Source: an uncultured bacterium
Lineage (GTDB): Bacteria > Verrucomicrobiota > Verrucomicrobiia > Verrucomicrobiales > DEV007
Direction of reading: 5' to 3'
Length of the DNA stretch: 30,515 nucleotides
NCBI GenBank assembly: GCA_963977015.1
Contig: CAXBMO010000041.1
Coordinates: 1-30,515, forward strand
Positions 1 through 24,217 of the stretch are shown one piece after another. Under the pieces are notes generated by a model. The model was not told the origin of the DNA and did not search any database. It was given only the letters and a program-made list of their open reading frames with translations. Made by a program: the position numbers and the translations under genes. Within the stretch, counting starts at the first letter, position 1. Every line of letters begins with the position of its first letter.

Positions 1-171
1 CTGAACACAAAGAGACCAAGCTTTTCGTGTCCACTTTTTCGGGGGAGTTCCATTCAAAAGGCGCAATTGGGTGATGGGCATATCGCCTTCAGGATCCCAG
101 CGGTTGTCCCCCCAGTCGACAGAGTCGGGAACCTCCCAACTTGTTCCGCATTGCCCACAGTGATCCGTCAT
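1..171 (-). CDS. Partial cassette-borne hypothetical protein (MTDHCGQCGTSW...; runs off the left edge)
   Basis: Manual translation: ATG at 171-169 with an open frame to position 1 and an N-terminal CxxC. Preceded by the core site GTTCGGC (187-181) and an A-rich leader like the other cassettes. Confidence 0.6.
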   Translation of the reverse strand, partial: MTDHCGQCGTSWEVPDSVDWGDNRWDPEGDMPITQLRLLNGTPPKKWTRKAWSLCVQ

Positions 172-187
172 CTTTTTTGAGCCGAAC

Positions 188-418
188 AGTATATTATTTC
201 ACTTGAAGGGCTGATATCCAAATCACGCAATTGGACCCTAACTTCTTAAGAAATGTTGATTGTTTGGTTCGAGTATTCATGATTATTCTAAATGAGTATG
301 AAAATTGTCGATTCACGGGCTACTGCCCTTGGCTGCCATATGGACTATCACTACCGGCTTGGCCGGTTTTTTGCAATGCGATTTTGCCCGAAAAGGATGG
401 GGTGATAGGGAATGTGGG
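188..418 (-). repeat. Conserved non-coding repeat 'B', copy 1 (attI-like cassette head)
   Basis: Aligns by eye with 1068-1257 and 14624-14851 (shared blocks GATATCCAA, ATTCATGAT, ATGGACTA). Abuts the GTT core of the downstream cassette. Confidence 0.85.
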
Positions 419-478
419 ACCCGGAAACTGGCGCGCGGGCGATTGAGTTCAGGGAGCGTTTCTACGGGTTAACGGGCG

Positions 479-608
479 CGCAAGGATCGCCCTTCTATTG
501 AAGCCGGCGAAGCCGGAACAATGTACTAATTCAAGATTACGAAGAAAATCACTGGTAAGTGTACCAAACAGCAAAAAAACTATCGACAGACCACCTCAGA
601 TGTTCGAT
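479..608. repeat. Conserved non-coding repeat 'A', copy 1 (cassette tail)
   Basis: Aligns with 13426-13554. 35 bp are identical (577-611 = 13523-13557), and the blocks CGCAAGGATCGCCCTTCT and GAAGCCGGCG are shared. Confidence 0.9.
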
Positions 609-649
609 TATGCCCGTTTTGGCTTACCGCGTTGAATTCAGGGCGACCT

Positions 650-1054
650 TCAGAGCCGAATGACAGAATCCTCTTTGAGTTTGTTGAGAATTTCGGGCGC
701 TTGTGAAATATCGTCGTGAAATACAAGACCAGAAAATGTGCCGGTCACTTTGGCGTAGCGCTTTTCCAAGGCTTCACCGTTACGAGCAAAAATCGGACCT
801 GTTGTGTCAGCAAGCGCCTCTTCAATCAGCGCAATTGCCTCGCCATCCGTTAGGTCTTCCCAATCTTCAAGGGCGGGCATCGCGAGTTCTGCGGCAAAAT
901 CGTCCAAGGAAGTGGACCGCCAATAGTTTTCTATTTCATATTCTGTGACCGAGTGCCCTGCAATCGCTTCTATTTCATTCGCAACAGTAGTGAAGTTGAT
1001 CTCCTTCTCTTCATACCTTCGTATCAACTCGACGATCTTTGCTTTCGCTACCAT
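650..1054 (-). CDS. Cassette-borne hypothetical protein, possibly a bacteriocin/colicin-E-type immunity protein
   Basis: 134-aa acidic helical ORF whose C-terminus (SGLVFH...PEIL...IRL) resembles nuclease-colicin immunity proteins. Bounded by GTTATGCC (1067-1060) and the complementary GGCATAA (614-608). Confidence 0.7.
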   Translation of the reverse strand: MVAKAKIVELIRRYEEKEINFTTVANEIEAIAGHSVTEYEIENYWRSTSLDDFAAELAMPALEDWEDLTDGEAIALIEEALADTTGPIFARNGEALEKRYAKVTGTFSGLVFHDDISQAPEILNKLKEDSVIRL

Positions 1055-1067
1055 CTCTTGGCATAAC

Positions 1068-1257
1068 AGTATGTTATTCCACTTGAAAGACTGATATCCA
1101 ATTCATGAAATTGGACCCAACTTCTTAAGGGATGTTGATCGTTTGATTTCGGAATTCATGATTTTTCTGGAGGAGTGTGAAAATTGTCCAGTATCGAGCT
1201 GCCGCCAAGGGATTGCAGATGGACTAGCAATACGGGGTTTCGTCGTTTTCTTCAAGG
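1068..1257 (-). repeat. Repeat 'B', copy 2
   Basis: High similarity to 188-376 (AACAGTATxTTATTxCACTTGAA..CTGATATCCAA..AATTGGACCC..AACTTCTTAAG..ATGTTGAT). Confidence 0.85.
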
Positions 1258-1396
1258 AAGTTCCGACGAGGTGGGGAGTTTACTTGGAGGGGAGACTGCT
1301 GGGTGGTGACTCTTCTGATTTCGGACCCTAACAACATCGTGTCGGAAGCCACTGGGCGCTTCGTGGGAGCCCCGTCAAATCATCGCAGTTGAGGCG

Positions 1397-2506
1397 TCAG
1401 GATGGTGTGGCGGTGGCGTCTGGCTTGAACCAATTGCGGGTGCGTTGACAGGTGCGGACGAGGAAGAGCATGAGGGGCACCTCGATGAGGACGCCGACGA
1501 CGGTGGCGAGGGCCGCCCCGGACGAGAGGCCGAAGAGCATGACGGCGGTGGCGATGGCGACTTCGAAGTTGTTCGACGCGCCGATCATGGCGGCGGGGGC
1601 GGCGTCTTCGTAGCGGAATTTCAAAAGCTTCGCCGCGAGGTAGGTGAGGCCGAAGATCAGGAGCGTTTGAAGCGCGAGCGGGATGGCGATCCAGAGAATA
1701 GTGAGCGGGTTGGCCAGGATGGTATCGCCTTTGAAACTGAAGAGCAGAACCAGGGTCACAAGCAGGGCGCCGATCGAGACCGGGGTGAGGTAGCGGAGAA
1801 ATTTGTCCGCGAACCACTCGGGCCCCTTCGCGTTCATGATCCACTTGCGGGAGAAGTAACCGGCCACGAGCGGCAGGGCGACGTAGATGCCAACGGAGAG
1901 GAGGAGCGCCTCCCACGGAACCGGCATTTGGTTGACCCCGAGCAGCCATCCGCCGAGGACGCCGTAGAGTACGAGCATGGTGAGGGAGTTGATCGCGACC
2001 ATGACGAGGGTGAGCCCCTGGTTGCCGCGGGCGAGGTAGCCCCACACCAGCACCATGGCGGTGCACGGGGCGATGCCGAGCAGGATGGCGCCGGAGATGT
2101 AGGACCGATAGAGTTCGACCTCGGTGCCGTCCTTGACCATCTCGGTGCCGGGAAGGAGATCCTTGAAAAAGACGCCAAGAAAGAGCGTCGCGATGGCGAG
2201 CATGGTGAACGGTTTGATGGCCCAGTTCACGAAGAGAGTCAGAAATACGGGGCGCGGGCTTCGGCTGGCCTGGACGACCTCGCCAAAGTCGATTTTGACC
2301 ATGATGGGATACATCATGAAGAAGAGGCAGATGGCGATGGGGATGGAGACAACCGGGGCGTCGTTCACGTAGATCGCCATGCCGTCGAGGGTTTCGGCAA
2401 GGCCCGGGGCGAGTTTGCCGAGGGCGATGCCGACGACGATGCAGGACGTCACCCAAAGGGAGAGGTGACGCTCAAAGAAGCTCATGGAAGATTTGTCGAG
2501 ACTCAT
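1397..2506 (-). CDS. acr3: Acr3-family arsenite efflux transporter
   Basis: Motifs [48 protein letters not shown] and VVGVLIEVP; multiple TM helices. Confidence 0.95.
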
Positions 2507-2611
2507 GGGAAATGGGGATGTGTCAGTTTGGTGGCGCGGTGATGCCGTGGACGACGTTTCGAAGGCGTGGTGGGCGCGGGCTAGACAGGGGAGGTGTGTG
2601 GCTTTGTTGAC

Positions 2612-2944
2612 TCAATCGTCCGCGGCTTCGTGAAAGTCATTGAGGCAGCAGAAAAGGTTCAGCAGGCAGGGCTTGCGAAGCGAGTAGAAGATCTGGGTGC
2701 CGCGACGTTCCTGCTTCAGAATGCCGACATTTCGCAAGACGGTGAGATGAGTCGAGACCGTGGACATGTCGAGATCGAGCAATGCGGTTAGGTCGGCGAC
2801 ACAGCGTTCGCCCTCGGCAACGGCGTTGATGATGACGAGCCGGTTGGGATTGCTGAGCGCCTTGAAAACGGCCGCAGCTTTCTCGAAGTCCTGGGCATCA
2901 AGATTGGAGGCACCGGCAGGCGAGGCGTCGCAGGATTCGGGCAT
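2612..2944 (-). CDS. arsR: ArsR/SmtB-family repressor
   Basis: FKALSNPNRL...ERCVADL...STVSTHL...RGTQIFYSL winged-helix pattern, directly upstream of acr3. Confidence 0.92.
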   Translation of the reverse strand: MPESCDASPAGASNLDAQDFEKAAAVFKALSNPNRLVIINAVAEGERCVADLTALLDLDMSTVSTHLTVLRNVGILKQERRGTQIFYSLRKPCLLNLFCCLNDFHEAADD

Positions 2945-2951
2945 ACATTGA

Positions 2952-2973
2952 TATTTGGCAAAGTATCCAAATA
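2952..2973. promoter_or_regulatory. Putative ArsR operator
   Basis: Inverted repeat TATTTGG-N8-CCAAATA immediately upstream of the arsR ATG. Confidence 0.6.
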
Positions 2974-3032
2974 ATGCAAGTGCGAAGGTCCGGAAACTGC
3001 GTTGCTACGGAACCTCGGGACCCGTGCTGCCC

Positions 3033-4478
3033 TCAGAATCCAAGCCACTTCTTGATCCGCTCCCAAAGAGGGGTGGTGTTGACGATCTTGTGCTGCTGTT
3101 GGTCAACCTTGACGCGCCCCATCCCGACGCCCGCGACGTAGTAGTCCAGCAGTTCTGCGATGGTTGCGTCTTCAAAGACTTCGGGATCGCCGGTGCCGGA
3201 GGAGTAGCTGGTCCAGCCGGAAAGGTTGGCGGTGAGGTCGGTTGATTTGCGGATGAGTTCCAGAAGCTGGTAGTTCGGTTCCGCTTCGAGGTAGGGGATG
3301 CGAAGGTCGAAGAGGTTGTCCACGGGAGCACCGTTGTTCGGCCCGCCGGGAAGCGGCGGCAGGTGAAAGAGGATCCTCCCGCGATTGGGGAGAAAGAGGA
3401 ATTCGATCTCCTCGTTCGGGAGCGGATTTCGCGACGTCCAGTAGGCGAATCCCTGGTAGGCATGGACGAAGGGGCTCGAGCCGTCGGGCAAGCGAACTTG
3501 AAGTTGGGTGCCGAATTCCTTGGGCGCATAGTTGAGCAAGCCGAGGTGGCCTTCGGACTCCGGGTCTCTCCGCGTCAAGGTTTGCGTCACGGAGTCATTG
3601 TCGCCGCTTCTGCTGGACTGGGACCACTTGCCGGTGTGGAGTTCGTGCAATCGGATTTCGGCCTGACTGAACGACGCCGTTGCGCCGGGTTCCAGCTTCA
3701 GCATCCGGCGTTCGGCCGGGCCATAGGCAAAGTCGATCGCGAGAACGAAAGGGGGATTGTGCCAGGCTTCAAACCGGGTCGACATCTGGGAGAGCTTGGC
3801 GTGGTGATAACTCGAACCGCTGGAAAGCGAGGTCTGGTTTTCCGCGTTGAGGATGCGAAAGCCCATCCAGCGAAAGGCGTCATCGTTGGAGGTCTCCACC
3901 AGGAACATGACTTCGGGCCAGTGCGTGCGAGAGCTGAGGTAGAAGCTGGGCGTTCCGTAGGATTTTTGGTCATCCCAATTTTCCACCGGATCATGGGTGT
4001 GGGGATCAATGAACTTGGCTGGGAAACGCTTGTCGTCTCCGGTAAGGGATTCCTTGTCGGGCCAGAAGACGGACAGGGCCTTCAGGCGAATTGTCAAATC
4101 CGGGCCAAAACTGCCTTCTTTGCCGAGCCCTGCGTCAATGACCCGGATGTGAGGGACCGCGCCGCCAGTCGCGTTTTGGATTTGGGATTCGATGCGAATC
4201 TCGGTTTCGGTGAGCGAAGACGTTGAGGTGCCGAACCGATAGGGTTTGGCCGGAATCGAACCCGAGGGTGGAGCAAAGGTGGGATCCCAGTTGCGGCGAG
4301 ACTCCGTCAGGCGGATTTCGTGGGGCGAGCTGAAGTGACGGGTGCTGGGGCGCTGCGAGACACCGAAAATGGCGGAGCCCAAAAACAGCAGGAGGATGCC
4401 CAGCGTAATCCAGGCTTTGGGGGTGAGGCGCTTCACAAAATGTGCTCCCACTCTGGCTGGAGTGGGTTGGGAATCCAA
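3033..4478 (-). CDS. Hypothetical membrane-anchored/exported protein
   Basis: 481-aa ORF with one N-terminal hydrophobic helix, 14 bp downstream of the PPC gene. The TTG start is uncertain. Confidence 0.7.
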   Translation of the reverse strand: MDSQPTPARVGAHFVKRLTPKAWITLGILLLFLGSAIFGVSQRPSTRHFSSPHEIRLTESRRNWDPTFAPPSGSIPAKPYRFGTSTSSLTETEIRIESQIQNATGGAVPHIRVIDAGLGKEGSFGPDLTIRLKALSVFWPDKESLTGDDKRFPAKFIDPHTHDPVENWDDQKSYGTPSFYLSSRTHWPEVMFLVETSNDDAFRWMGFRILNAENQTSLSSGSSYHHAKLSQMSTRFEAWHNPPFVLAIDFAYGPAERRMLKLEPGATASFSQAEIRLHELHTGKWSQSSRSGDNDSVTQTLTRRDPESEGHLGLLNYAPKEFGTQLQVRLPDGSSPFVHAYQGFAYWTSRNPLPNEEIEFLFLPNRGRILFHLPPLPGGPNNGAPVDNLFDLRIPYLEAEPNYQLLELIRKSTDLTANLSGWTSYSSGTGDPEVFEDATIAELLDYYVAGVGMGRVKVDQQQHKIVNTTPLWERIKKWLGF

Positions 4479-4492
4479 GCCAATTCTTGGCG

Positions 4493-6814
4493 CTACTTCT
4501 TCGGCGCTGGCGCGGTCACTTCCACGGTGATGGGGACCGAGTAGGTCGCGAATTGCTGGGTTTTCTCCTTGGCGGTATCGGCGCTCTGCTTGGCGGCTTT
4601 TTCGGCGGCAGTTTTGAGCGTGGCGACGGTCTTGGCCTTGGCTTCGTCGCCGGCGACGGTTTTGGCGAGATCCGTCAGGCGGGCGACTTCGGCTTCGGCG
4701 CGTTCGGCAGCTGCGGGATTGTGCCGGTAAAGCGCGTTGCCCACGCCCTGAAGCACGAATTGATACCTGCCGGGCTCGATTTTGAAGTTGCCGCTCGGCC
4801 GAAAGTTGATCGTTACCTTCCCCTCGGTCGCGCCCTCGGCAATGGAGGTTTTCGGCGGGCTTCTCAGCATTCCGGGAAACCCGAAGACTTCGACCTGGAG
4901 GCTGCCCTTGCGCGGACCGGCGTCGTGGACGGTGAAGGGGATGTCCAGCGTCTGGTTGAGTTCGGCGGTCCAGACCTTGTCTTCGGCGGGGGCGAGGATC
5001 GTGGGTTCGGCTTCCGTATCCATGACCGAAAGGACGATCTCCTCGTCGATCCGCGACCGCACCTGGCGCTGGTTTCCAAAGACGCGGATTCCCCAGATGA
5101 TGGAGCCGTTTCGTGCTTCCCGCGTCACGGCGTTCTCGTTGATGTCGGCGGTTCCCGTGATGCGAATGGGGCCGGTCCAGCGCGGTGCGTCGGCCCGGGC
5201 CTGGAGCATCAGGTAGCCTTCCGTCGTCTTGCCGCTCATCACCAACGGTGGCGCGATGACGCCTTCCGGCAGGTCGTGTGCCTCCACTGTGATGTCGCCT
5301 TCGAATCCGTCCTGGCGCAGGGCGAGGATCCGAAACACCATCGCTCCGCCGCGTCGCAACAGCGGTGCGGCCGGGTAGGCGTCGTTGTTGATCGTTTTGG
5401 TGCGTTCCGTTCCGGCGATGAGTTGAAAGTCCGGTTGGGGATCGCGGATCGCGAGCCGGTAGAGATGGGCGAGACTTCCGCCGCCGCTTTGGTTGAGCAG
5501 GGTGATGAGATAGTCGCCCGCTTCCGGGGCGGTGAATTGAAGGGCGGGATCGAGCGTGTTCGCGTTCAGGTCGTCGAGCGAGTCGGGGCCGTAGAAGCTG
5601 GCCGGGTCATCGGCTTCGGCCAACAGCTTACCATCATCGCCAACCTTGCGAACGGAGATGACCGGATCGCTGAGCACGCCGAGGCGGTCGGAATAGACCT
5701 CCAACGCATAGGTGCGATCCTTCTCCGCGGTGAACCGGAAGCTGTCGATGTCGCCGGGTTCGTCAAACCGGCCGGCGATCTCGCAGGGAACCGTCACCAA
5801 TTGATCGATCGCGTCCGCATCTTCCAGAACGACGGGCGCGGTTGCGAACCCGACCTTGGTCGATCCGGCGATGAATCCCGGGAACGCGGCGACGCGCGGC
5901 TTGGCGGTCTGGATTCCGGCAGGGGAGGCGACCTCCGCCGGGGCGCTGACTTTGATCGTTGCGGTTTCGATCGGCTTGCCATCGAGGAGATTCCCGGTGT
6001 CGATCTTTCCATCCGGCAAATGGCGTCCGAACTGGGTAAGCTTCGCCGTTTTCCCGGGTTCAACCGCAGGAGGGAAGGCGAAGTCGACCCTGGGCTGCCG
6101 GGAAATCTGGAGTCGGTAGAAATACTCGCTGTTGCCACGATACAAGGTCTCCGAAAGCGCCACAAAGTATTCGCCATCAGTCGGCGGCGTGAAGTCGACC
6201 AGAGGATCGGCCCCGATCGAACGGCGATTGCTGTCCAACTCGCGTCCCGCTTCATCAAAAACGGCCAACTGGCAGTCCGCCCGCGAATCGAGTCGCTCCG
6301 CCCAAGCCTGGATGATGAGTCGCTCGCCGCCCTTGCCCGTGAAGCGATACCAATCGATTTTGCGATTGTCAGTCGTTCCGAGCACGCCGGTCTCGAGTTC
6401 CAGCGGCATCGCTGTTTCCCGGGTCGAGTGATTGCCCTCCTCCCGAGTTTCCACCGCATTTTGGTCAACGACCATGAAGGGACGCGCCGTGGAAAGGCCA
6501 AAGTAACCGAGCGAGCGAACCTCGTAGAGCCCGGGCTCGGCATCGGCGGGAATCGTGATCTTGAACCGGTTCGCGACCGGGCGTGGCTCGGGATGAAACT
6601 CGTCGGCCGACTGGGTGATCGTCTCAACCTGAAAACGCGGATCGGCAAAGCGCAGCGTCGTCGCCTCGTCGAGGTTGGAGCCCTTGATGGTGACCTCAAC
6701 CGTGGCGCCCGCTTTCCCGACCGCCGGAGCGATCATCAACAGATCGGGGTTCGGCATGAAAGCGTGAGCCAGGGTGAGGCCCGCGAGATAGGAAAGGGTA
6801 AGGAAGAACCGCAT
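4493..6814 (-). CDS. Secreted PPC (pre-peptidase C-terminal) repeat protein, PVC type
   Basis: Signal peptide MRFFLTL...AHA, PAVGKAGATVEVTIKG, DWYRF and DIDSFRF repeats. Start placed at ATG 6814. Confidence 0.85.
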   Translation of the reverse strand: MRFFLTLSYLAGLTLAHAFMPNPDLLMIAPAVGKAGATVEVTIKGSNLDEATTLRFADPRFQVETITQSADEFHPEPRPVANRFKITIPADAEPGLYEVRSLGYFGLSTARPFMVVDQNAVETREEGNHSTRETAMPLELETGVLGTTDNRKIDWYRFTGKGGERLIIQAWAERLDSRADCQLAVFDEAGRELDSNRRSIGADPLVDFTPPTDGEYFVALSETLYRGNSEYFYRLQISRQPRVDFAFPPAVEPGKTAKLTQFGRHLPDGKIDTGNLLDGKPIETATIKVSAPAEVASPAGIQTAKPRVAAFPGFIAGSTKVGFATAPVVLEDADAIDQLVTVPCEIAGRFDEPGDIDSFRFTAEKDRTYALEVYSDRLGVLSDPVISVRKVGDDGKLLAEADDPASFYGPDSLDDLNANTLDPALQFTAPEAGDYLITLLNQSGGGSLAHLYRLAIRDPQPDFQLIAGTERTKTINNDAYPAAPLLRRGGAMVFRILALRQDGFEGDITVEAHDLPEGVIAPPLVMSGKTTEGYLMLQARADAPRWTGPIRITGTADINENAVTREARNGSIIWGIRVFGNQRQVRSRIDEEIVLSVMDTEAEPTILAPAEDKVWTAELNQTLDIPFTVHDAGPRKGSLQVEVFGFPGMLRSPPKTSIAEGATEGKVTINFRPSGNFKIEPGRYQFVLQGVGNALYRHNPAAAERAEAEVARLTDLAKTVAGDEAKAKTVATLKTAAEKAAKQSADTAKEKTQQFATYSVPITVEVTAPAPKK

Positions 6815-10305: not shown

Positions 10306-12804
10306 TCAGTGGTTGAACATGAACTCCTTGGTGTTGATGAGCACCCAGAGGAGATCTTCGAAGGCCTGTCGTTCAGCGGCTTCCGGGGTCAGCTTCCCTT
10401 CGCTTTCAGCAGCGAGTTGCCGTTTTTTGGCGAGGTGGGATTGGGCCATGGCGAGTTCCTCGGCATCCGGTTCGCGGGAAACGGCGCGAAGGTAGAGTTC
10501 GGTGAGCCGGTCGGCATCGGGGCGCTCGCCCGCTTTGGACAGTTCGGCGGCGAGACCGGAGTTGGCGTTGAGTTTGGTCTGGATCAGGTTGGAATTGATG
10601 AGATGGAGGCTCTGGCCAAGATTGGCTTCGTCGGTGCGCTCGCACTCACAGGCGGCATCCATCGCGGGGCGACCGAACACGGTGAGAAACTCGGATTCAT
10701 TGTTCGCCTTCTCGTTGGGCAGCGCGATGGCGCGGACGCCGACGGGTTGCTGGTTGAACGAGTTCTGCGAACCGGTCACGTCGTTGATGGAATCGAGCAG
10801 GACTTCGGCCGGGAGGCGGCGGGGATAAAAGCGGGCGTAGTTCTGTTCGTCGGCCCCATTGTTTTCCTGGGGCAGGGAGCTGAGCTGGTAGGTTTGGCTG
10901 TTGCAGAGCGTCCGGATCAGCACTTTGAGGTCAAAACCGGACCCGGCAAAATTCCGGGCCAGTTCTTCGAGCAACTCGGGGTGCGTTGCCGGGTTGGTCG
11001 GGCGGATGTCGTCTTCCGGCTCGACGAGGCCGCGGCTGAAAAAATGCTTCCAGTAGCGATTGACGAGAACGCGGGCAAAATACGGATTCTCCTTGGCGCG
11101 AACCCAGGTGGCGAGTTCAAACCTGGGATCCCGATCCGCCGGAATCTCCAGCGCATCTCCTTCACCCAGCAATCTGGGCTTGAGCTGCTGACCCGAGATC
11201 GGGTTCTGCATCTGGGCGACCGTCCGGCTGTGGTAGACGAGATCTTCGGCCGGCAGCTTGGGCGTTTTCTTCCGCTTCAGGGTCGAGAAAAACGCGGCGA
11301 ACGAAAAGTAGTCGTCCTGGCTCCAGCGCTCATAGGGGTGATGGTGGCACTGGGCGCACTGCATCCGAATCCCGAGAAAAACCTGGGCAATGTCCTGCAT
11401 TTGCTCCTTCTGATCCTTGACGACCCGATACCAGCTCACGGCCGGGTTTTCGCGGGCATTTCCGCTCGCGAGAATGAGTTCGCTGGCAAACTGGTCGAAG
11501 GGCTTGTTGGTGAGCAGACTGCTGCGAATCCAGGAATGAAAGGCGTAGGATTCCTGGGCAACCCATTCCTGGCCGCGACCGACCTGGTTGCGCAACAAAC
11601 CGGCCCATTTTCCCGCGAAATAGTCGGCGTAATCGGTGGATTCGAGCAGCGCGTCGATCTTGGCCGAACGTTTGTCGGGAGCTTCCGAAGCGAGAAAGGT
11701 CCGGGTTTCCTCAAGGGTGGGCAGGCGACCGGCGATGTCGAGCGTGACGCGGCGGAGAAAGGTTTGGTCGTCACAAATTTTGGATGCCGGGAGGCCGAGA
11801 ACGCGGAGCTTGGCGAAGATGTGCTCGTCGACGAAGTTCGCCGGTTTGGGTAGCTCGGCAATCGTCCCGCCAACCGGAATCGTCGCCATGAACACGGTGA
11901 TGTGCTCCTGAAAGCGAACCATGACCGAGGTGCTGCCGGATCGGTTGGCAAAGCTGACGAGCCCGTGTTCATCCGCTTCGCTCATTTCCGGTTGATTGCC
12001 CTCGTATTGCACCGCGCGGGTGATGTCACGCGTCGTTCCATCGCTGAAGAATGCGGTCACCGCGAGTTGTTGCCGGGAACCCGGTTGCGCGACGACGTTG
12101 CGGGGAAAAATCGCGATCCGCTCGACGGTCGCTTCCGATTCGGGGTGATAGGGGAGGCCGGATTCGATCCAACGCCGAATCGTGCGGTAATCCTCGGAGT
12201 CGCGTTCGAGACGGGCGCCGCCTTCGTGGGGAATCTCGCCACTGGCTTTCAGCAAAATCAGGCTGTGATCCGGTGCGGCCGGGTTGGCCCGGCGTCCGCG
12301 CGACTGCCGCGCGATCATCTCAAAGTCGGATCCCGGATCGAACCCGAGGAGCGAAAGCTGAAACCCGTTCTGGCCGGTCGACTTGGCGTGGCAGGCCCCG
12401 GCGTTGCAATGGCTGCGGGTGAAAACGGGCACGACGTCGTTGGCGAAGCTGACCGCCTGGGGTTGGTCAAATTGTTCGACGCGAACCTGGATCGAGGCGG
12501 AGGGATGCCCGTCTGAATCGGCCGTGATCGTGGCTTCTCCGTTCGCGGTGGCCTTGACGAACCCCGTCGCACTGATTTCGACAATGCCCGCTGGATGGGT
12601 GGAGTAGCGGACCGAACGCGTCGCATCGCGTCCTTCCTGCATCACGACCAGTTGCTGGCGGGCGTCGGGACCGATCAAAACGATGGAATCCGCTTCGGCG
12701 CGACCGTGAATCGTCGGATTCGGCGGGTTGGCGGCATCCAATCCACCCGCGAGGAAGAGGGAAAACACGAGCGAACGTCGGAAAATGGAAGTGGCAACAG
12801 GCAT
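10306..12804 (-). CDS. DUF1549/DUF1553 protein with Ig-like (Big_2) domains
   Basis: CNAGACH, FLRRVTLDIAGRLP, CAQCHHHPYERW, NRYWKHFFSRGL, ACECER and NTKEFMFNH motifs. Start placed at ATG 12804. Confidence 0.93.
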   Translation of the reverse strand: MPVATSIFRRSLVFSLFLAGGLDAANPPNPTIHGRAEADSIVLIGPDARQQLVVMQEGRDATRSVRYSTHPAGIVEISATGFVKATANGEATITADSDGHPSASIQVRVEQFDQPQAVSFANDVVPVFTRSHCNAGACHAKSTGQNGFQLSLLGFDPGSDFEMIARQSRGRRANPAAPDHSLILLKASGEIPHEGGARLERDSEDYRTIRRWIESGLPYHPESEATVERIAIFPRNVVAQPGSRQQLAVTAFFSDGTTRDITRAVQYEGNQPEMSEADEHGLVSFANRSGSTSVMVRFQEHITVFMATIPVGGTIAELPKPANFVDEHIFAKLRVLGLPASKICDDQTFLRRVTLDIAGRLPTLEETRTFLASEAPDKRSAKIDALLESTDYADYFAGKWAGLLRNQVGRGQEWVAQESYAFHSWIRSSLLTNKPFDQFASELILASGNARENPAVSWYRVVKDQKEQMQDIAQVFLGIRMQCAQCHHHPYERWSQDDYFSFAAFFSTLKRKKTPKLPAEDLVYHSRTVAQMQNPISGQQLKPRLLGEGDALEIPADRDPRFELATWVRAKENPYFARVLVNRYWKHFFSRGLVEPEDDIRPTNPATHPELLEELARNFAGSGFDLKVLIRTLCNSQTYQLSSLPQENNGADEQNYARFYPRRLPAEVLLDSINDVTGSQNSFNQQPVGVRAIALPNEKANNESEFLTVFGRPAMDAACECERTDEANLGQSLHLINSNLIQTKLNANSGLAAELSKAGERPDADRLTELYLRAVSREPDAEELAMAQSHLAKKRQLAAESEGKLTPEAAERQAFEDLLWVLINTKEFMFNH

Positions 12805-12819
12805 GCTGTTCCCTATCAC

Positions 12820-12866
12820 GCGGGTTCCAGGGCAGAAGTTTCACCGTCTGATTTCCGCAAAACGAC
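12820..12866 (+). repeat. 47-bp direct repeat, left copy
   Basis: 41/47 identical to 14899-14945, with a 20-bp exact core GAAGTTTCACCGTCTGATTT. Confidence 0.9.
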
Positions 12867-12886
12867 GACTCGGCCGCCATCACGCC

Positions 12887-13126
12887 CTGCATCGCAAGCT
12901 GAAGCTGATCGTCAACGAAGCTAGAAGCCGAGTGGTCCCGCTTCGTGAAGCCGCGTTTCTCGGTTTCAATATAATGCAACGCCGAGTGCGCTGGAGTGAG
13001 AAATCGAAGAAGCGCTTTAAGGGGAATGCCCGGTATATTATCAGGAGCACGCATGGCGTATCTCCCTCCAAGCAGATTGCCGAACTGCAGTCTTATGTTC
13101 ACGGAGCCATCAACCACTCGATGCCT
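12887..13126 (+). pseudogene. Fragment of a group II intron RT/maturase (RT C-terminus and start of the X domain)
   Basis: RKLKLIVNEARSRVV...FLGF...RVRWSEKSKKRFK...GVS...IAELQSYVHGAINH matches the class C intron-encoded-protein pattern. No YADD and no start. Confidence 0.85.
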
Positions 13127-13136
13127 GTCCTGAACT

Positions 13137-13270
13137 GGAGGGCGATGCTCCGTCATCGCCGATTCTTGGGAATGCCTGGCGGGGGCGGAGGTAGATGGGC
13201 GGACCGCGCGCCTGTCATGCGCCCATCCGCCAAAAGCGAAGTCACGGCGACGACGGAGCGATCGCCCTCC
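13137..13270. repeat. REP/REPIN-like long inverted repeat
   Basis: GGAGGGCGATGCTCCGTCATCGCCG (13137-13161) pairs with 13245-13270 (1 mismatch, 1 indel). There is also an inner hairpin GATGGGCG...CGCCCATC. Confidence 0.75.
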
Positions 13271-13425
13271 CAAAACAATGGCAACGATTCATGTTCGCGT
13301 GTTGGCAACGCGGGGAACCGAAGACGATCTCAAATACGAAGCAAGCTTATCAAGGCGAGGCAGTCAATTCGCAGTTTCGCCGGGCCAAGAGGAATCGAAA
13401 AAGCGCTTCACGAACGAAAAATATC

Positions 13426-13554
13426 CGCAAGGATCGCCCTTCTGTCGAAGCCGGCGTAGCCTGAATATGGTATTCGATCAAGGGTAAGAAGAATTCAATG
13501 GCAACCTGTACTACAAAGCAACAAACTATCGACAGACCACCTCAGATGTTCGAT
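13426..13554. repeat. Repeat 'A', copy 2
   Basis: Aligns with 479-608; fused to the R'' remnant GAGATAA of the CbrC cassette. Confidence 0.9.
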
Positions 13555-13561
13555 TATCTCC

Positions 13562-14086
13562 TTACGTGTAGTCGGCGTAGTATAGCACCTTGGAGCATTT
13601 CCGGCATTTCCACTTGTAGATCGCAGGGTTGCCCCCGGGAGAATAGTTCTGCTTGAATTCTGTGAAGAATTCCTCTGTGAGCCGACTATCATCAAACGTC
13701 GATCGAAAGACCTCAAGGGTCATGGCCGAAACATCAGCTTTGGAGGCATCACCATGAAACTCGCAAGCATCACTACAGCATGAGAGCCAGACCTCCTGCT
13801 GCCAACTGCTGAATCCAGGAGTCCGCTTAGTGACTTCATCGATGATTTCAGGATCCAAACCGGCATCCACCAACGGATAGTCGTCGGAAAACATGCCATC
13901 AAATTTCTCCGCTGCACTGCCATCGGCGATACACCACGGGCAAACAGATTCGACCTCATCCGCGCAATAGAGGCTTGCCGTGTAAATGAATCCTCGAGCC
14001 TTCGAACAGCATTCGCACTTCGCGTCGCTCGCCTTGATGGCGCCGGTCTCAATCGGCTGAGGATGGTAGGTGAACGCTGGGAGCAT
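13562..14086 (-). CDS. CbrC/UPF0167 family protein (gene cassette)
   Basis: FTYHPQP, CECC, CPWCIADGSAAEKF, RTPGFSSWQQE.WLSCC and CRKC motifs. Confidence 0.9.
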   Translation of the reverse strand: MLPAFTYHPQPIETGAIKASDAKCECCSKARGFIYTASLYCADEVESVCPWCIADGSAAEKFDGMFSDDYPLVDAGLDPEIIDEVTKRTPGFSSWQQEVWLSCCSDACEFHGDASKADVSAMTLEVFRSTFDDSRLTEEFFTEFKQNYSPGGNPAIYKWKCRKCSKVLYYADYT

Positions 14087-14093
14087 TTTCTTG

Positions 14094-14152
14094 AGATAAC
14101 GTCGGGCATGTGCCGCGCCGATTAGGCGTCGGACACAATGCCATTGTTCGTC
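14094..14152 (-). mobile_element. Integron attC site (59-bp element)
   Basis: On the minus strand: R'' GACGAAC, arm GGCATtGTGtCCGaCGCC pairing with GGCGCGGCACATGCC (3 extrahelical bases), then R' GTTATCT. R'' AGACGAAC is complementary to this cassette's start GTTCGTCT (14623-14616). Confidence 0.88.
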
Positions 14153-14607
14153 TTCGTTTCGTCTTTTGCCTCTGCGGTCCCCTTCGACGCCATTGCCAGA
14201 TTGTAAGCTTTCATCCAGTTTTTGTTGGCCTCATCAATAGTGTATTCAAGGTATTCAGCGATCTCGTCAAATCGCTTGAATTTTGCAAATCCGACTGGGG
14301 AATAGCCCATTCGATTTTCAACCTCTTCCAACGGATACATCGAAAATGGCGACCTCGTCGGAGTCTTGGTCAGGTGTGCTTCTTCAATGTCTCGAAGCGC
14401 TTCGTCAGGAGAAAATTGGATTCCTTCATATCCCATATACTGAACGAATTGGCGTAGCTTTCGGAGGTTTCCAGATCCGATTCTCCGAAAGATTTCTTTT
14501 TCCCAATACCCCGAGTCATTCACCTCAGGTAGAAACTTGAGAGACGGAAATCGAAATACGAGGTCCTTCCGTATCCTCGAGTAGTCGTATCGAATTCGAT
14601 CAATCAT
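14122..14607 (-). CDS. Hypothetical protein (gene cassette)
   Basis: 161-aa AT-richer ORF between the GTTCGTC core and the attC; its stop lies inside the attC loop. Confidence 0.7.
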   Translation of the reverse strand: MIDRIRYDYSRIRKDLVFRFPSLKFLPEVNDSGYWEKEIFRRIGSGNLRKLRQFVQYMGYEGIQFSPDEALRDIEEAHLTKTPTRSPFSMYPLEEVENRMGYSPVGFAKFKRFDEIAEYLEYTIDEANKNWMKAYNLAMASKGTAEAKDETKTNNGIVSDA

Positions 14608-14623
14608 CTTTCTTCAGACGAAC

Positions 14624-14851
14624 AGATATTGTTCCGCTTCACGGGCGATATCCAATTCCCAAAAGTGAACCTGTTGAGGATCTTCCGTGGGGGCGAATGG
14701 GTTTGAGATTCATGATCCCTGCTTGCGTTTGTGGTATTGATTGAAATGGAGACTGCCTCCGTTGACTGCCACATGGACTATCACTACCAGTTTGCCCAAC
14801 TTGCTGCAATGGCATTTTACCCGAAAATGGAGGGGTGATGGGGAATGTGGG
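14624..14851 (-). repeat. Repeat 'B', copy 3
   Basis: Shares GATATCCAATTC, ATTCATGAT, CTGCCAxATGGACTATCACTACC, TGCAATG..ATTTT.CCCGAAAA and GGGGTGATxGGGAATGTGGG with the other copies. Confidence 0.8.
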
Positions 14852-14898
14852 CTGTCCCCACTACAAGGATCAGAATCTGTCCACGATCTCCAGAATTT

Positions 14899-14945
14899 GC
14901 GGGTTTTGGGGCGGAAGTTTCACCGTCTGATTTGCGCAAAAAGAC
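14899..14945 (+). repeat. 47-bp direct repeat, right copy
   Basis: 41/47 identical to 12820-12866. Confidence 0.9.
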
Positions 14946-14988
14946 TTGCTTACCTTGCTCTTACGGTGCCAAATCTGCCATTGCCAGG

Positions 14989-16383
14989 ATGATGAAGACT
15001 TTTTGGATCGCCATGTCAGTCTGCTGCGTCGCCGTTTTTGCAACGGCCGGCGAGGATCCCAGTCTCCCGCCTTACAAATGGCCGGACTACCCCAAATACA
15101 GCCTCAGGACCGAACATCAGCCGATCAAGGGCTGGAAAATTGAGACGTTGTACAAGGGGAGCCGTGAGGTTTTTCTGCGCGAAAGCGGCCGGGACCGCAA
15201 AGCCAACGGGGTCAAGAGCAAGGACAACCCGACTGCGAAAGGGCTGGATGAGCACCTTTACCTGCTTCACTTCGACTATGCGGACTATCGCAGGCAGGGA
15301 GGACCGCCGATTGCCGAGTTGGAGGTGGATCCGCAGCGGCCTGTGTTTCTCGGTTGGGATTTCAACGATTTCTCGACCCGTTTTCACCGCTGGACCGGCG
15401 AACGCGGCCTTTCGCGCAAGTACGTGAATCCCGCCGAGTTTTCCAGCGAGCGATCGGTGCCGCTGGATGTTCCGCATTTTCACGTGAACCCGAATTGTCG
15501 GCACGCCGATTGGCAGCGGTTCCTGCTTCCGGTGGTGACGGCGGAAGGCGGTGGCGATTTCATGATCGTCAATGCTTTTGATAAGGCCGGGATGACGGTG
15601 GGGTTCATCCAAATGGCGGCGCACACGCCCGACGACATGATTTCGCTGATGCGGCACCTGATTCAGGACGAGGAACTGAAGAAGGATCCGTATGCCAACC
15701 CGGAGCGCTGGTTTCCGGAGCTCGGGATCACGGAGGACGGCAAGCTCGGCTACAAGTTGAGTTCGGGAGAGATCGTTTCGCTTGAGGAATGCACCGAGCA
15801 TCGCAACTCCAACGAAGGGTTCAGGCGTTCTCCGAGCTGGGCTTATTTCCGGGAGGATTTTGTGCGGTTCTGCAATCCTTCTGTCACCGAAATGAACCAG
15901 GCCGAGCTTCACTTCGCGGCGCGATGGCTGATGTGGTCGATGTCTCCGGCGATGCGCGAGGCCCAGGTTCAGCCCTCCAAAGACAACGTGATCAAGAGTC
16001 TGATGAAGCTGGAAGGCGTTCCCCGGCGCGTTTCCGCAGCCGATGCGGCGATAGCTGCGGTGGTCCTGCATTGGAACGATGGCGCCGCCTACCGCAAACG
16101 GGTTGCGGGGATGCTGCGCCACAACACGCCCATCAAGAGCTTCTTCAGCCTGGAATCGCGCAAGGGCGATCCCAAAGCCGAGGCGGTTTACGGGAAGCTC
16201 CTCTGCAAGGAACCCGATTGGTGGCAGATCGGGAACCAAAGCGAGCGCCAGTTGATCAACCGCCGCATTGAAGCGGTTCGCCTGCTTTTTGAGCGCGATC
16301 CCGACCTGCTCAGTCGGCTCCGCGCAATGACGTTTGACTTCGAGACGGGCGAATTGAGCGGCAAACTCGCCTTTGCCGAGTAA
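14989..16383 (+). CDS. Secreted hypothetical protein, possible lysozyme-like hydrolase
   Basis: Signal peptide MMKTFWIAM...ATA and the motif EGGG..IVNAFD...TVGFIQ.AAHTP. Start placed at ATG 14989. Confidence 0.75.
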   Translation: MMKTFWIAMSVCCVAVFATAGEDPSLPPYKWPDYPKYSLRTEHQPIKGWKIETLYKGSREVFLRESGRDRKANGVKSKDNPTAKGLDEHLYLLHFDYADYRRQGGPPIAELEVDPQRPVFLGWDFNDFSTRFHRWTGERGLSRKYVNPAEFSSERSVPLDVPHFHVNPNCRHADWQRFLLPVVTAEGGGDFMIVNAFDKAGMTVGFIQMAAHTPDDMISLMRHLIQDEELKKDPYANPERWFPELGITEDGKLGYKLSSGEIVSLEECTEHRNSNEGFRRSPSWAYFREDFVRFCNPSVTEMNQAELHFAARWLMWSMSPAMREAQVQPSKDNVIKSLMKLEGVPRRVSAADAAIAAVVLHWNDGAAYRKRVAGMLRHNTPIKSFFSLESRKGDPKAEAVYGKLLCKEPDWWQIGNQSERQLINRRIEAVRLLFERDPDLLSRLRAMTFDFETGELSGKLAFAE

Positions 16384-16518
16384 ACAGGTCCGGAGAAATT
16401 CTCGGGAAAAAGTTGAGAGAAACGGCAGTCGGGGACACGTCTCAACGTTGCGTGGGGCGATCCGACCGTTGCAAGGCGGACGCTCCAGCCACGTTTCAAC
16501 CCAATCTTCTGCCACTCC

Positions 16519-22881: not shown

Positions 22882-22970
22882 GTAAAACGGGACACCGGCC
22901 CGTTCCCGCGGACGACGCGCCCGATCGACCGGCGGGAGTCTCCGGGGAACGGGCCGGTGTCCCGTTTTAC
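22882..22970. repeat. REPIN (inverted REP doublet), copy 1
   Basis: 26-bp perfect inverted repeat GTAAAACGGGACACCGGCCCGTTCCC around a 37-bp spacer. Confidence 0.9.
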
Positions 22971-22972
22971 GG

Positions 22973-24076: not shown

Positions 24077-24128
24077 GGAGCGAATTCTTCCAGCTAGCCC
24101 GCATGGTGCGCAGGTTAGACGGCTAAAC

Positions 24129-24217
24129 GTAAAACGGGACACCGGCCCGTTCCCCGGAGACTCCCGCCGGTCGATCGGGCGCGTCGTCCGCGGGAACGGG
24201 CCGGTGTCCCGTTTTAC
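24129..24217. repeat. REPIN, copy 2 (spacer inverted relative to copy 1)
   Basis: Exact reverse complement of 22882-22970. Confidence 0.9.

Follow-up and report, generated by a model that had tools for sequence, protein, structure and literature searches.

The question raised by this locus is whether a short piece of intron-encoded protein, lying opposite to two small genes that resemble integron cassettes, is left over from an intron that targeted a cassette array. The question of integron biology at stake is how genes acquire attC sites. The window, meaning the whole stretch of 30,515 nt that was analysed, had been predicted to hold a plus-strand fragment of about 80 amino acids related to the introns that insert antisense into attC. 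This fragment is likely to be a decayed remnant of the IIC-attC lineage in a 2-kb mini-array of low G+C content, which may once have homed into the distal attC and been eroded later. According to excerpts of PMC7923331, IIC-attC introns have the consensus target TTGT/T in the R'' box of the attC bottom strand, lie in antisense orientation and also occur in attC clusters that have no integrase. The relevant part of PMC3001079 concurs on strand and orientation and gives antisense, distal to the last cassette, as the usual position. Since these introns reverse-splice into the attC bottom strand at TTGT/T, they come to lie antisense to the cassette genes.

The fragment proved real and slightly wider than proposed, with a stop-free plus-strand translation of 86 residues from 258 nt. 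In tblastn, the full-length intron protein on contig C17 of the same genome matches it with 45% identity over 86 aa (E 2.8e-20). The NCBIfam model TIGR04416 (group II RT/maturase) matches at E 1.6e-7 over profile positions 238-323 of 353, and the GsI-IIC RT (PDB 6ar1) at E 0.0011. Residues 289-372 of a 476-aa database protein, P0003, are 75% identical to the fragment; the RVT_1 and GIIM domains of P0003 occupy residues 107-317 and 330-404. In domain terms, the fragment takes in the last part of the RT domain and the N-terminal half of the maturase (X) domain. Because it spans the boundary between two domains, from the end of RVT_1 into GIIM, a Pfam search yields no family at E<=10 and is silent on it.

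The remnant is purely internal, with about 258 of about 1,900 nt, or some one seventh of a group IIC intron. A tblastn search with two full-length intron proteins finds no further significant piece in the 30.5-kb window. Group II RNA domains of Rfam are absent from positions 11387-14617 at E<=0.1, and no Rfam group II family reaches its gathering score across the whole window. Identical Rfam searches recovered D1-D4 and D5/D6 in the intact C17 and C18 copies and in the broken C6 copy. The fragment carries neither the ribozyme (D1-D6) nor the 5' GUGYG and 3' AY ends of a complete element. Both intron ends are missing, so the insertion site of the fragment itself is unreadable. The decay is mild, since 86 codons remain without a stop or frameshift. 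At columns conserved in at least 90% of rows the fragment keeps 11/16 residues, with five of the 16 changed, while seven full-length kin keep 13-15/16. The outward promoters of such introns map to domains I-II in the portion of PMC3001079 that treats them; since these domains are absent, the fragment has no plausible present function and is a non-functional remnant.

The fragment also lies inside a longer open frame (12728-13459), from which the gene caller predicted a 218-aa product, P0002, and which is free of stops for 243 codons. Such a frame might be a domesticated gene in which the maturase-like piece is put to use, yet this is extremely improbable. The P0002 frame has no RT active site and lacks half of the maturase domain, and the five conserved residues noted above are lost. 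Downstream, it runs through a palindromic repeat and, out of frame, through the tail of an IS110-family element. Many spurious frames are equally long in this G+C-rich window, and among longer proteins the only one with the P0002 architecture is P0002 itself.

The lineage of the fragment was assessed through its full-length kin. A full-length copy, which the original prediction had suggested looking for, was found in the intron on contig C17. The C17 protein is the closest such copy in the genome and scores 412.7 bits with the GsI-IIC RT, 362.5 with the E. rectale IIC RT, 166.7 with LtrA and 145.4 with the T. elongatus RT. It has only RVT_1 and GIIM domains, as does P0003, and the region of the endonuclease domain is absent from the fragment. 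The best plasmid matches of the C17 protein include introns of class 1 integrons, placed in antisense between qacEdelta1 and the final cassette. Three of these served as tree references, labelled IIC-attC by their integron context and not by name.

For the trees, 80 loci were taken from species-representative genomes, and 70 passed the filter (at least 380 aligned residues, no stop). The quick tree has 83 rows (the 70 loci minus 4 duplicates plus 17 other rows), and the 37 rows of the careful ML tree were picked from this set. In the 37-row tree the fragment is paired with P0003 (95/87); the pair falls in a set of five rows (100/99), itself part of a clade of 15 rows that is Verrucomicrobial for the most part (100/100). 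A 31-row node (100/100) joins this clade with the three integron-resident introns, which are gammaproteobacterial, and leaves six other IIC-like rows outside; a Desulfobacterota/Geobacter-type group and a Planctomycetota group are also members. The topology of the 83-row tree agrees with this, and in a 16-row careful tree the PVC clade is sister to the three integron references (99/99). Judged by these trees, the fragment belongs to the IIC-attC lineage, the references being defined by context, and it does not group with non-attC introns.

The fragment could instead derive from an ordinary class C (terminator-targeting) intron or from an intron of another class, with its nearness to the cassettes a coincidence. 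It has only 86 residues, which occupy 19-20% of the tree columns, and its identity with the class 1 integron references over the shared columns is 30-35%. The outgroup classes in these trees are unverified, and the named class-C references GsI-IIC, B.h.I1 and S.ma.I2 are not among the rows. This explanation is nevertheless very unlikely, given the nested support for the pair, the 5-row set and the Verrucomicrobial clade, the node that unites them with integron-resident introns to the exclusion of the six other IIC-like rows, and the use by kin introns of TTGT/T in TAAC...GTT hairpins. The RVRWS motif, from which the lineage had originally been guessed, fares less well than the lineage itself. 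The exact pentapeptide occurs in 4/83 rows, the fragment and its three nearest kin, so it was a lucky pointer and is not diagnostic of the lineage.

The targets of the kin introns were read from relatives, in which 21 D1-D4 matches were inspected and 18 5' junctions could be resolved. The junction ends in TTGT in 16/18 and in TGGT in the other two. Where several GTRYG starts were possible, the start 5 nt before the conserved CC-CAGCATGG was taken, a rule that favours TTGT; TTGT is also the ending of every junction whose GTACG start is unambiguous (9/9). The 3' exons begin with T in 10/11 cases. The nearest genomic kin of the fragment, at 76% DNA identity, are two tandem introns in the same-genus genome G001, which occupy TAAC...TTGT/TAGCC hairpins.

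The G001 introns occupy two similar attC-like hairpins, one after the other at a distance of about 1.5 kb (L021, G001:C3:354000-363000, at ~1960-5500). The first has no ORF, with D1-D4 at 2071-2236 and D5/D6 ending at 2645 of that locus. The second has an intron protein gene, which is frameshifted.

Table 1. Features of the island and its borders, in window coordinates (slashes within motifs mark boundaries or insertion points; a dot in the strand column is as reported).
Feature	Position	Strand	Basis
PSD1/DUF1549 gene, start adjoins the left direct repeat	10306-12819	-	
Left 47-nt direct repeat, native intergenic sequence	12820-12866	.	family D13, 87% identical to 14899-14945
Group II intron RT/maturase, internal fragment, 86 codons	12881-13138	+	tblastn, TIGR04416, trees
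Palindromic dispersed repeat, 134 nt, near-perfect	13137-13270	.	-46.2 kcal/mol, z -5.5
IS110-family relic, last ~18 transposase codons and ~240-nt non-coding tail	13264-13557	+	matches of the C6 copy
Distal cassette ORF, UPF0167/CbrC family, 174 aa	13562-14086	-	PF03691 E 3.4e-60; NF040891 E 1.5e-39 (below cut-off)
attC-like site, 59 nt, between the two ORFs, overlaps the last codons of ORF161	14094-14152	-	hairpin and alignment
Proximal cassette ORF161, 161 aa, no family	14122-14607	-	ORF list, Pfam, NCBIfam
TTGT/T, unoccupied intron target	14144-14148	+	sequence; consensus from excerpts of PMC7923331
5' boundary box of the proximal cassette, G/TTCGTC	14617-14623	-	sequence and end of homology with G002
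'A' module, ~200-nt dispersed repeat upstream of each island's first ORF	14647-14851	.	repeat search
Right 47-nt direct repeat, closes the island	14899-14945	.	repeat search

The fragment lies in an island (12867-14898, 2,032 bp) with a G+C content of 0.46-0.57, against about 0.60 around it. The 47-nt repeat that frames the island has only two copies in its own genome by blastn. In the same-genus genome G002 the island is absent, the flanking genes are 520 nt apart and there is a single related copy of the repeat; the island is thus an insertion or deletion polymorphism. A 47-nt duplication is too long to fit transposition or integrase-mediated insertion.

Read along the minus strand, the island consists of the A module, ORF161, the attC-like site, the UPF0167/CbrC ORF, the IS110-family tail, the palindromic repeat and the intron fragment (Table 1). 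Both ORFs are on the minus strand and the fragment is on the plus strand, so it is antisense to the cassettes, as had been claimed. The ORF161 cassette as a unit spans ~14100-14622. The integron integrase of the genome is on contig C1 (291 bits, the only match above the TIGR02249 cut-off), and no integrase ORF was noted among the window ORFs scanned, a subset of all. The island has no intI and attI adjoining the array, as a complete integron would. A self-blast of 40 kb around the C1 integrase, made for a genome-specific attC consensus, gave 0 repeats.

The site between the two ORFs has, on its top (minus) strand, an R'' box GACGAAC, a bulged stem-loop and an R' box GTTATCT; the bottom strand is the plus strand. 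The boxes each fit RYYYAAC / GTTRRRY at 5/7 positions. The AAC...GTT hairpin has a folding energy between -14.3 and -15.7 kcal/mol (z from about -2.8 to -3.0) and three single-base bulges (T, A, A), all on one arm. It ranks as the third-best distinct one among 1512 AAC...GTT pairs in the window. When it is aligned with seven attC halves occupied by introns, 8/8 rows (14094-14152 included) have TAACG and TTGT without variation, and the site shares the GCCGCGCCG/GGCG[T]CGG arms with class 1 attC halves. The 5' end of the cassette, TTCGTC, is exactly complementary to its own R'' (GACGAAC). The site is therefore called attC-like, a designation that takes its basis from a modest hairpin (z ~-2.8) and the alignment and not from a curated attC model. 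The TTGTT that had been pointed out as an intron target is present and unoccupied, on the same strand as the intron fragment and 1 kb from it.

No second attC-like site was found in the island, including at the distal cassette. A possible R'' box AGATAAT (13553-13559) overlaps the IS110-family tail and is ambiguous. Searched against the genome, an nhmmer profile of the eight aligned sites gave nothing beyond the site itself at E<0.1 and one match at E 0.1; the profile is insensitive, since it missed the homologous site on C6. A loose regular expression for the attC 3' arm gave 143 matches in the genome, mostly random, and was discarded as uninformative.

Elsewhere in the window, a 52-nt AAC...GTT hairpin at 16444-16495 (-15.1 kcal/mol, z -1.96), just past the ORF at 14845-16383, outranks the attC-like site. 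It could be a terminator, or else a further attC-like site.

Exactly at the expected position of the distal attC lies a remnant of the IS110 family, antisense to the cassettes. Transposase codons at 13264-13317 are followed by a frameshift. Positions 13277-13560 are 94-96% identical to C6:270827-271104 of another contig of the genome. This fuller C6 copy matches NF033542 at E 0.0098, over profile positions 312-342 of 343. In tblastn against plasmids it matches the C-termini of IS110 transposases at E 2e-9 to 3e-5 among the 12 matches listed, 10 of which overlap annotated transposases (7 of these named IS110). A full IS110 transposase (DEDD/serine-type, ~340 aa) is not present at 13264-13557, which holds a C-terminal remnant only. 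In attC-targeting IS1111-type elements, the tail region encodes a guide RNA. IS110 tails of varying length are dispersed in the genome and also occur at 479-611, C6:270766-271131 and C30:30341-30400.

The tail of the IS110-family remnant includes the sequence that had been described as repeat A, some 300 nt downstream of the fragment. This repeat is real (13426-13557, matching 479-611), but the proposal to compare it with the 3' end of the full-length intron led to nothing shared, and it is the tail of an IS110-family element. A blastn comparison of the C17 intron with 12700-15000 gave three matches at chance level (E 0.05-0.19), none of them in the repeat. As an attC, repeat A is ruled out because it has no hairpin (z -0.37 and +1.5).

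Between the IS110-family remnant and the intron fragment lies the palindromic repeat, which is dispersed in the genus: copies or arms are found on contigs C8 and C32 of the same genome and also in G002, G003, G009 and G015. It was rejected as an attC by eye, since both flanks are AAC on one strand and do not have the arrangement AAC...GTT. Further along the window, two 90-nt perfect palindromic elements (22882-22971 and 24128-24217) lie in inverted orientation and bracket a stretch of ~1.2 kb, which is duplicated nearby (families D1, D3, D7, D8, D12, D14).

At the other end of the island, the A module has further copies at 213-418 and 1065-1255 and on the own contigs C6, C18, C19 and C36. Its gene-proximal end is a mini palindrome, xAAC-AGTAT-RTTAT, beside the start codon. 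The module could be a promoter or an attI-like platform.

A similar array of four ORFs is found on contig C6. It begins with an A module, a 255-aa ORF, an attC-like site with TTGT/TAGCC, a 176-aa ORF and an IS110 tail. Past the tail there are a 5' intron fragment, an acetyltransferase-like ORF and a 3' intron fragment. The 3' fragment is 93% identical to the C17 intron (L026 1557-1830, where L026 is C6:268000-275000), and the 5' fragment starts directly after ...ATTGT (L026, from ~2540). The presence of intron debris beside this IS110 tail is therefore a recurring layout. A small hairpin insert is repeated in both C6 intron fragments.

Two other places in the genome have related components. 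The contig begins inside a similar array (window 1-1260), with small minus-strand ORFs at 650-1054 and 1-171, an A module before each and a short IS110 tail between them; a hairpin scan of window 1-1260 found no attC-like site. On contig C18 (C18:43951-49965; L001, L027, L119) there is a full-length intron of a different lineage, whose protein was used as an outgroup. It adjoins an intact IS110-family transposase (48032-49027, 230 bits) and a copy of the A module (49727-49965).

These layouts suggest a history for the fragment. An intron of the IIC-attC lineage would have homed into the distal attC, antisense beyond the last cassette. Later insertions and deletions would then have removed the ribozyme domains, RT motifs 0-6 and the 3' end. 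Three layers of debris, namely the IS110-family tail, the intron piece and between them the palindromic repeat, now fill the expected position of the distal attC. At its 3' end the fragment breaks off just where the palindromic repeat starts, and the 5' break (12867-12881) is within ~15 nt of the island boundary repeat. Since the left break is so near this repeat, the piece may have arrived already broken.

In that case the fragment never homed locally, and a broken piece was brought in with the island by the recombination that made the 47-nt repeats. Its position by the cassettes would then tell nothing of local intron activity. Besides the break at the island boundary, the same-genus genome without the island speaks for such an arrival, as does the 94-96% identity of the IS110 tail with its C6 copy, which shows that these modules move or are copied as blocks. 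This account explains how the piece arrived, but not what it is. The antisense position distal to the last cassette is the typical placement of IIC-attC introns in the available part of PMC3001079, and C6 repeats the layout of an intron by an IS110 tail with other parts of the intron; the two observations fit decay inside cassette arrays. Arrival of a broken piece is rather unlikely, and local homing followed by erosion is the favoured, if tentative, reading. From its context, the locus may record an interplay of introns and cassettes, as the original prediction proposed.

The same island holds a second possible trace of intron activity. The same-genus genome G002 (L015, G002:C334) has a copy of the ORF161 cassette that is 89% identical, with homology from 14142 to 14621. 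Apart from the gene, the two cassettes share a canonical 5' boundary and an R'' box, and in G002 another cassette comes after ORF161. The attC bodies of the two alleles are unrelated, with 51 nt in the window and ~125 nt in G002. The homology end at 14621 is within 1 nt of the boundary G/TTCGTC. The other end (14142) is at most 6 nt from TTGT/T and is not at the integrase crossover G/TT. In the long site of G002 an AAC pairs with a GTT; the site is weak as an attC, since the fold is no better than those of shuffles (z -0.25).

In the model of Leon & Roy (2009), as the relevant section of PMC7923331 summarises it, cassettes form by intron-mediated recombination, and introns take part in the joining of genes to attC sites. 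The homology end at the intron target fits this model in a single case. The ATTGT shared by the two alleles may be merely a conserved R'' motif. That the ORF161 alleles are the scar of an attC joined or swapped by an intron in the manner of this model is doubtful and, on present evidence, quite improbable. If it were true, Verrucomicrobial mini-arrays with their many pieces of IIC-attC intron would lend themselves well to observing attC exchange. Since the genus has intact introns, vacant TTGT/T targets, debris and at least one cassette whose attC body varies, the model can be tested by comparative genomics, and its present support is this one case.

The array and its fragment can be compared with four known systems. 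As in CALIN and single-attC loci, the cassettes are small ORFs in one orientation, which look promoterless, and a bulged AAC...GTT hairpin lies at the 3' end of an ORF. As in integron cassettes, the 5' end TTCGTC complements its own R'', and the ORF161 cassette has a different neighbour in the sister genome. Unlike CALIN and single-attC loci, the array has one attC-like site only, with R boxes that fit at 5/7 positions, and it is framed by the A module and the IS110 tail.

An IS1111-attC group of IS110-family elements is said to have been described by Tetu and Holmes in 2008. The IS110-family remnant resembles this group in being antisense to the cassettes at the expected distal attC, and consists here of the last codons and the tail only. 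With the intron fragment beside it, two kinds of putatively attC-targeting element, an intron and a member of the IS110 family, are seen to accumulate and decay distally in small arrays lacking an integrase.

The closest likeness of the fragment itself is to the IIC-attC introns (S.ma.I2, Sh.ba.I2 and G.s.I1 type; Leon & Roy; Quiroga et al.), with which it shares its protein lineage by the trees. As in these introns, its full-length kin have no endonuclease domain and insert after TTGT on the bottom strand of attC-like hairpins, with a 3' exon that begins with T. The fragment is likewise antisense and distal to the last cassette, the position given in the pertinent passages of PMC3001079, and the 5' end of the C17 intron contains GTACGCCCAGCATGGGC, as does the Sh.ba.I2 primer listed there. 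It differs from them in having 258 nt of ORF only, with no ribozyme, no ends and no adjacent integrase, and in its host lineage, which is Verrucomicrobial where theirs is proteobacterial. A precedent in PMC7923331, as far as its excerpts describe it, is UHB.F1, a 5'-truncated and decayed IIC-attC intron that lies antisense in a cassette array of uncertain integrase linkage from a soda-lake metagenome. Its best database match in those excerpts is a Verrucomicrobia RT with 80% identity. By the same description UHB.F1 retains its 3' part, whereas here an internal piece alone is left, between the island boundary on one side and a palindromic repeat on the other. The fragment is thus an ordinary example: IIC-attC introns are already known to associate with integron cassettes, and the locus adds a decayed Verrucomicrobial case.
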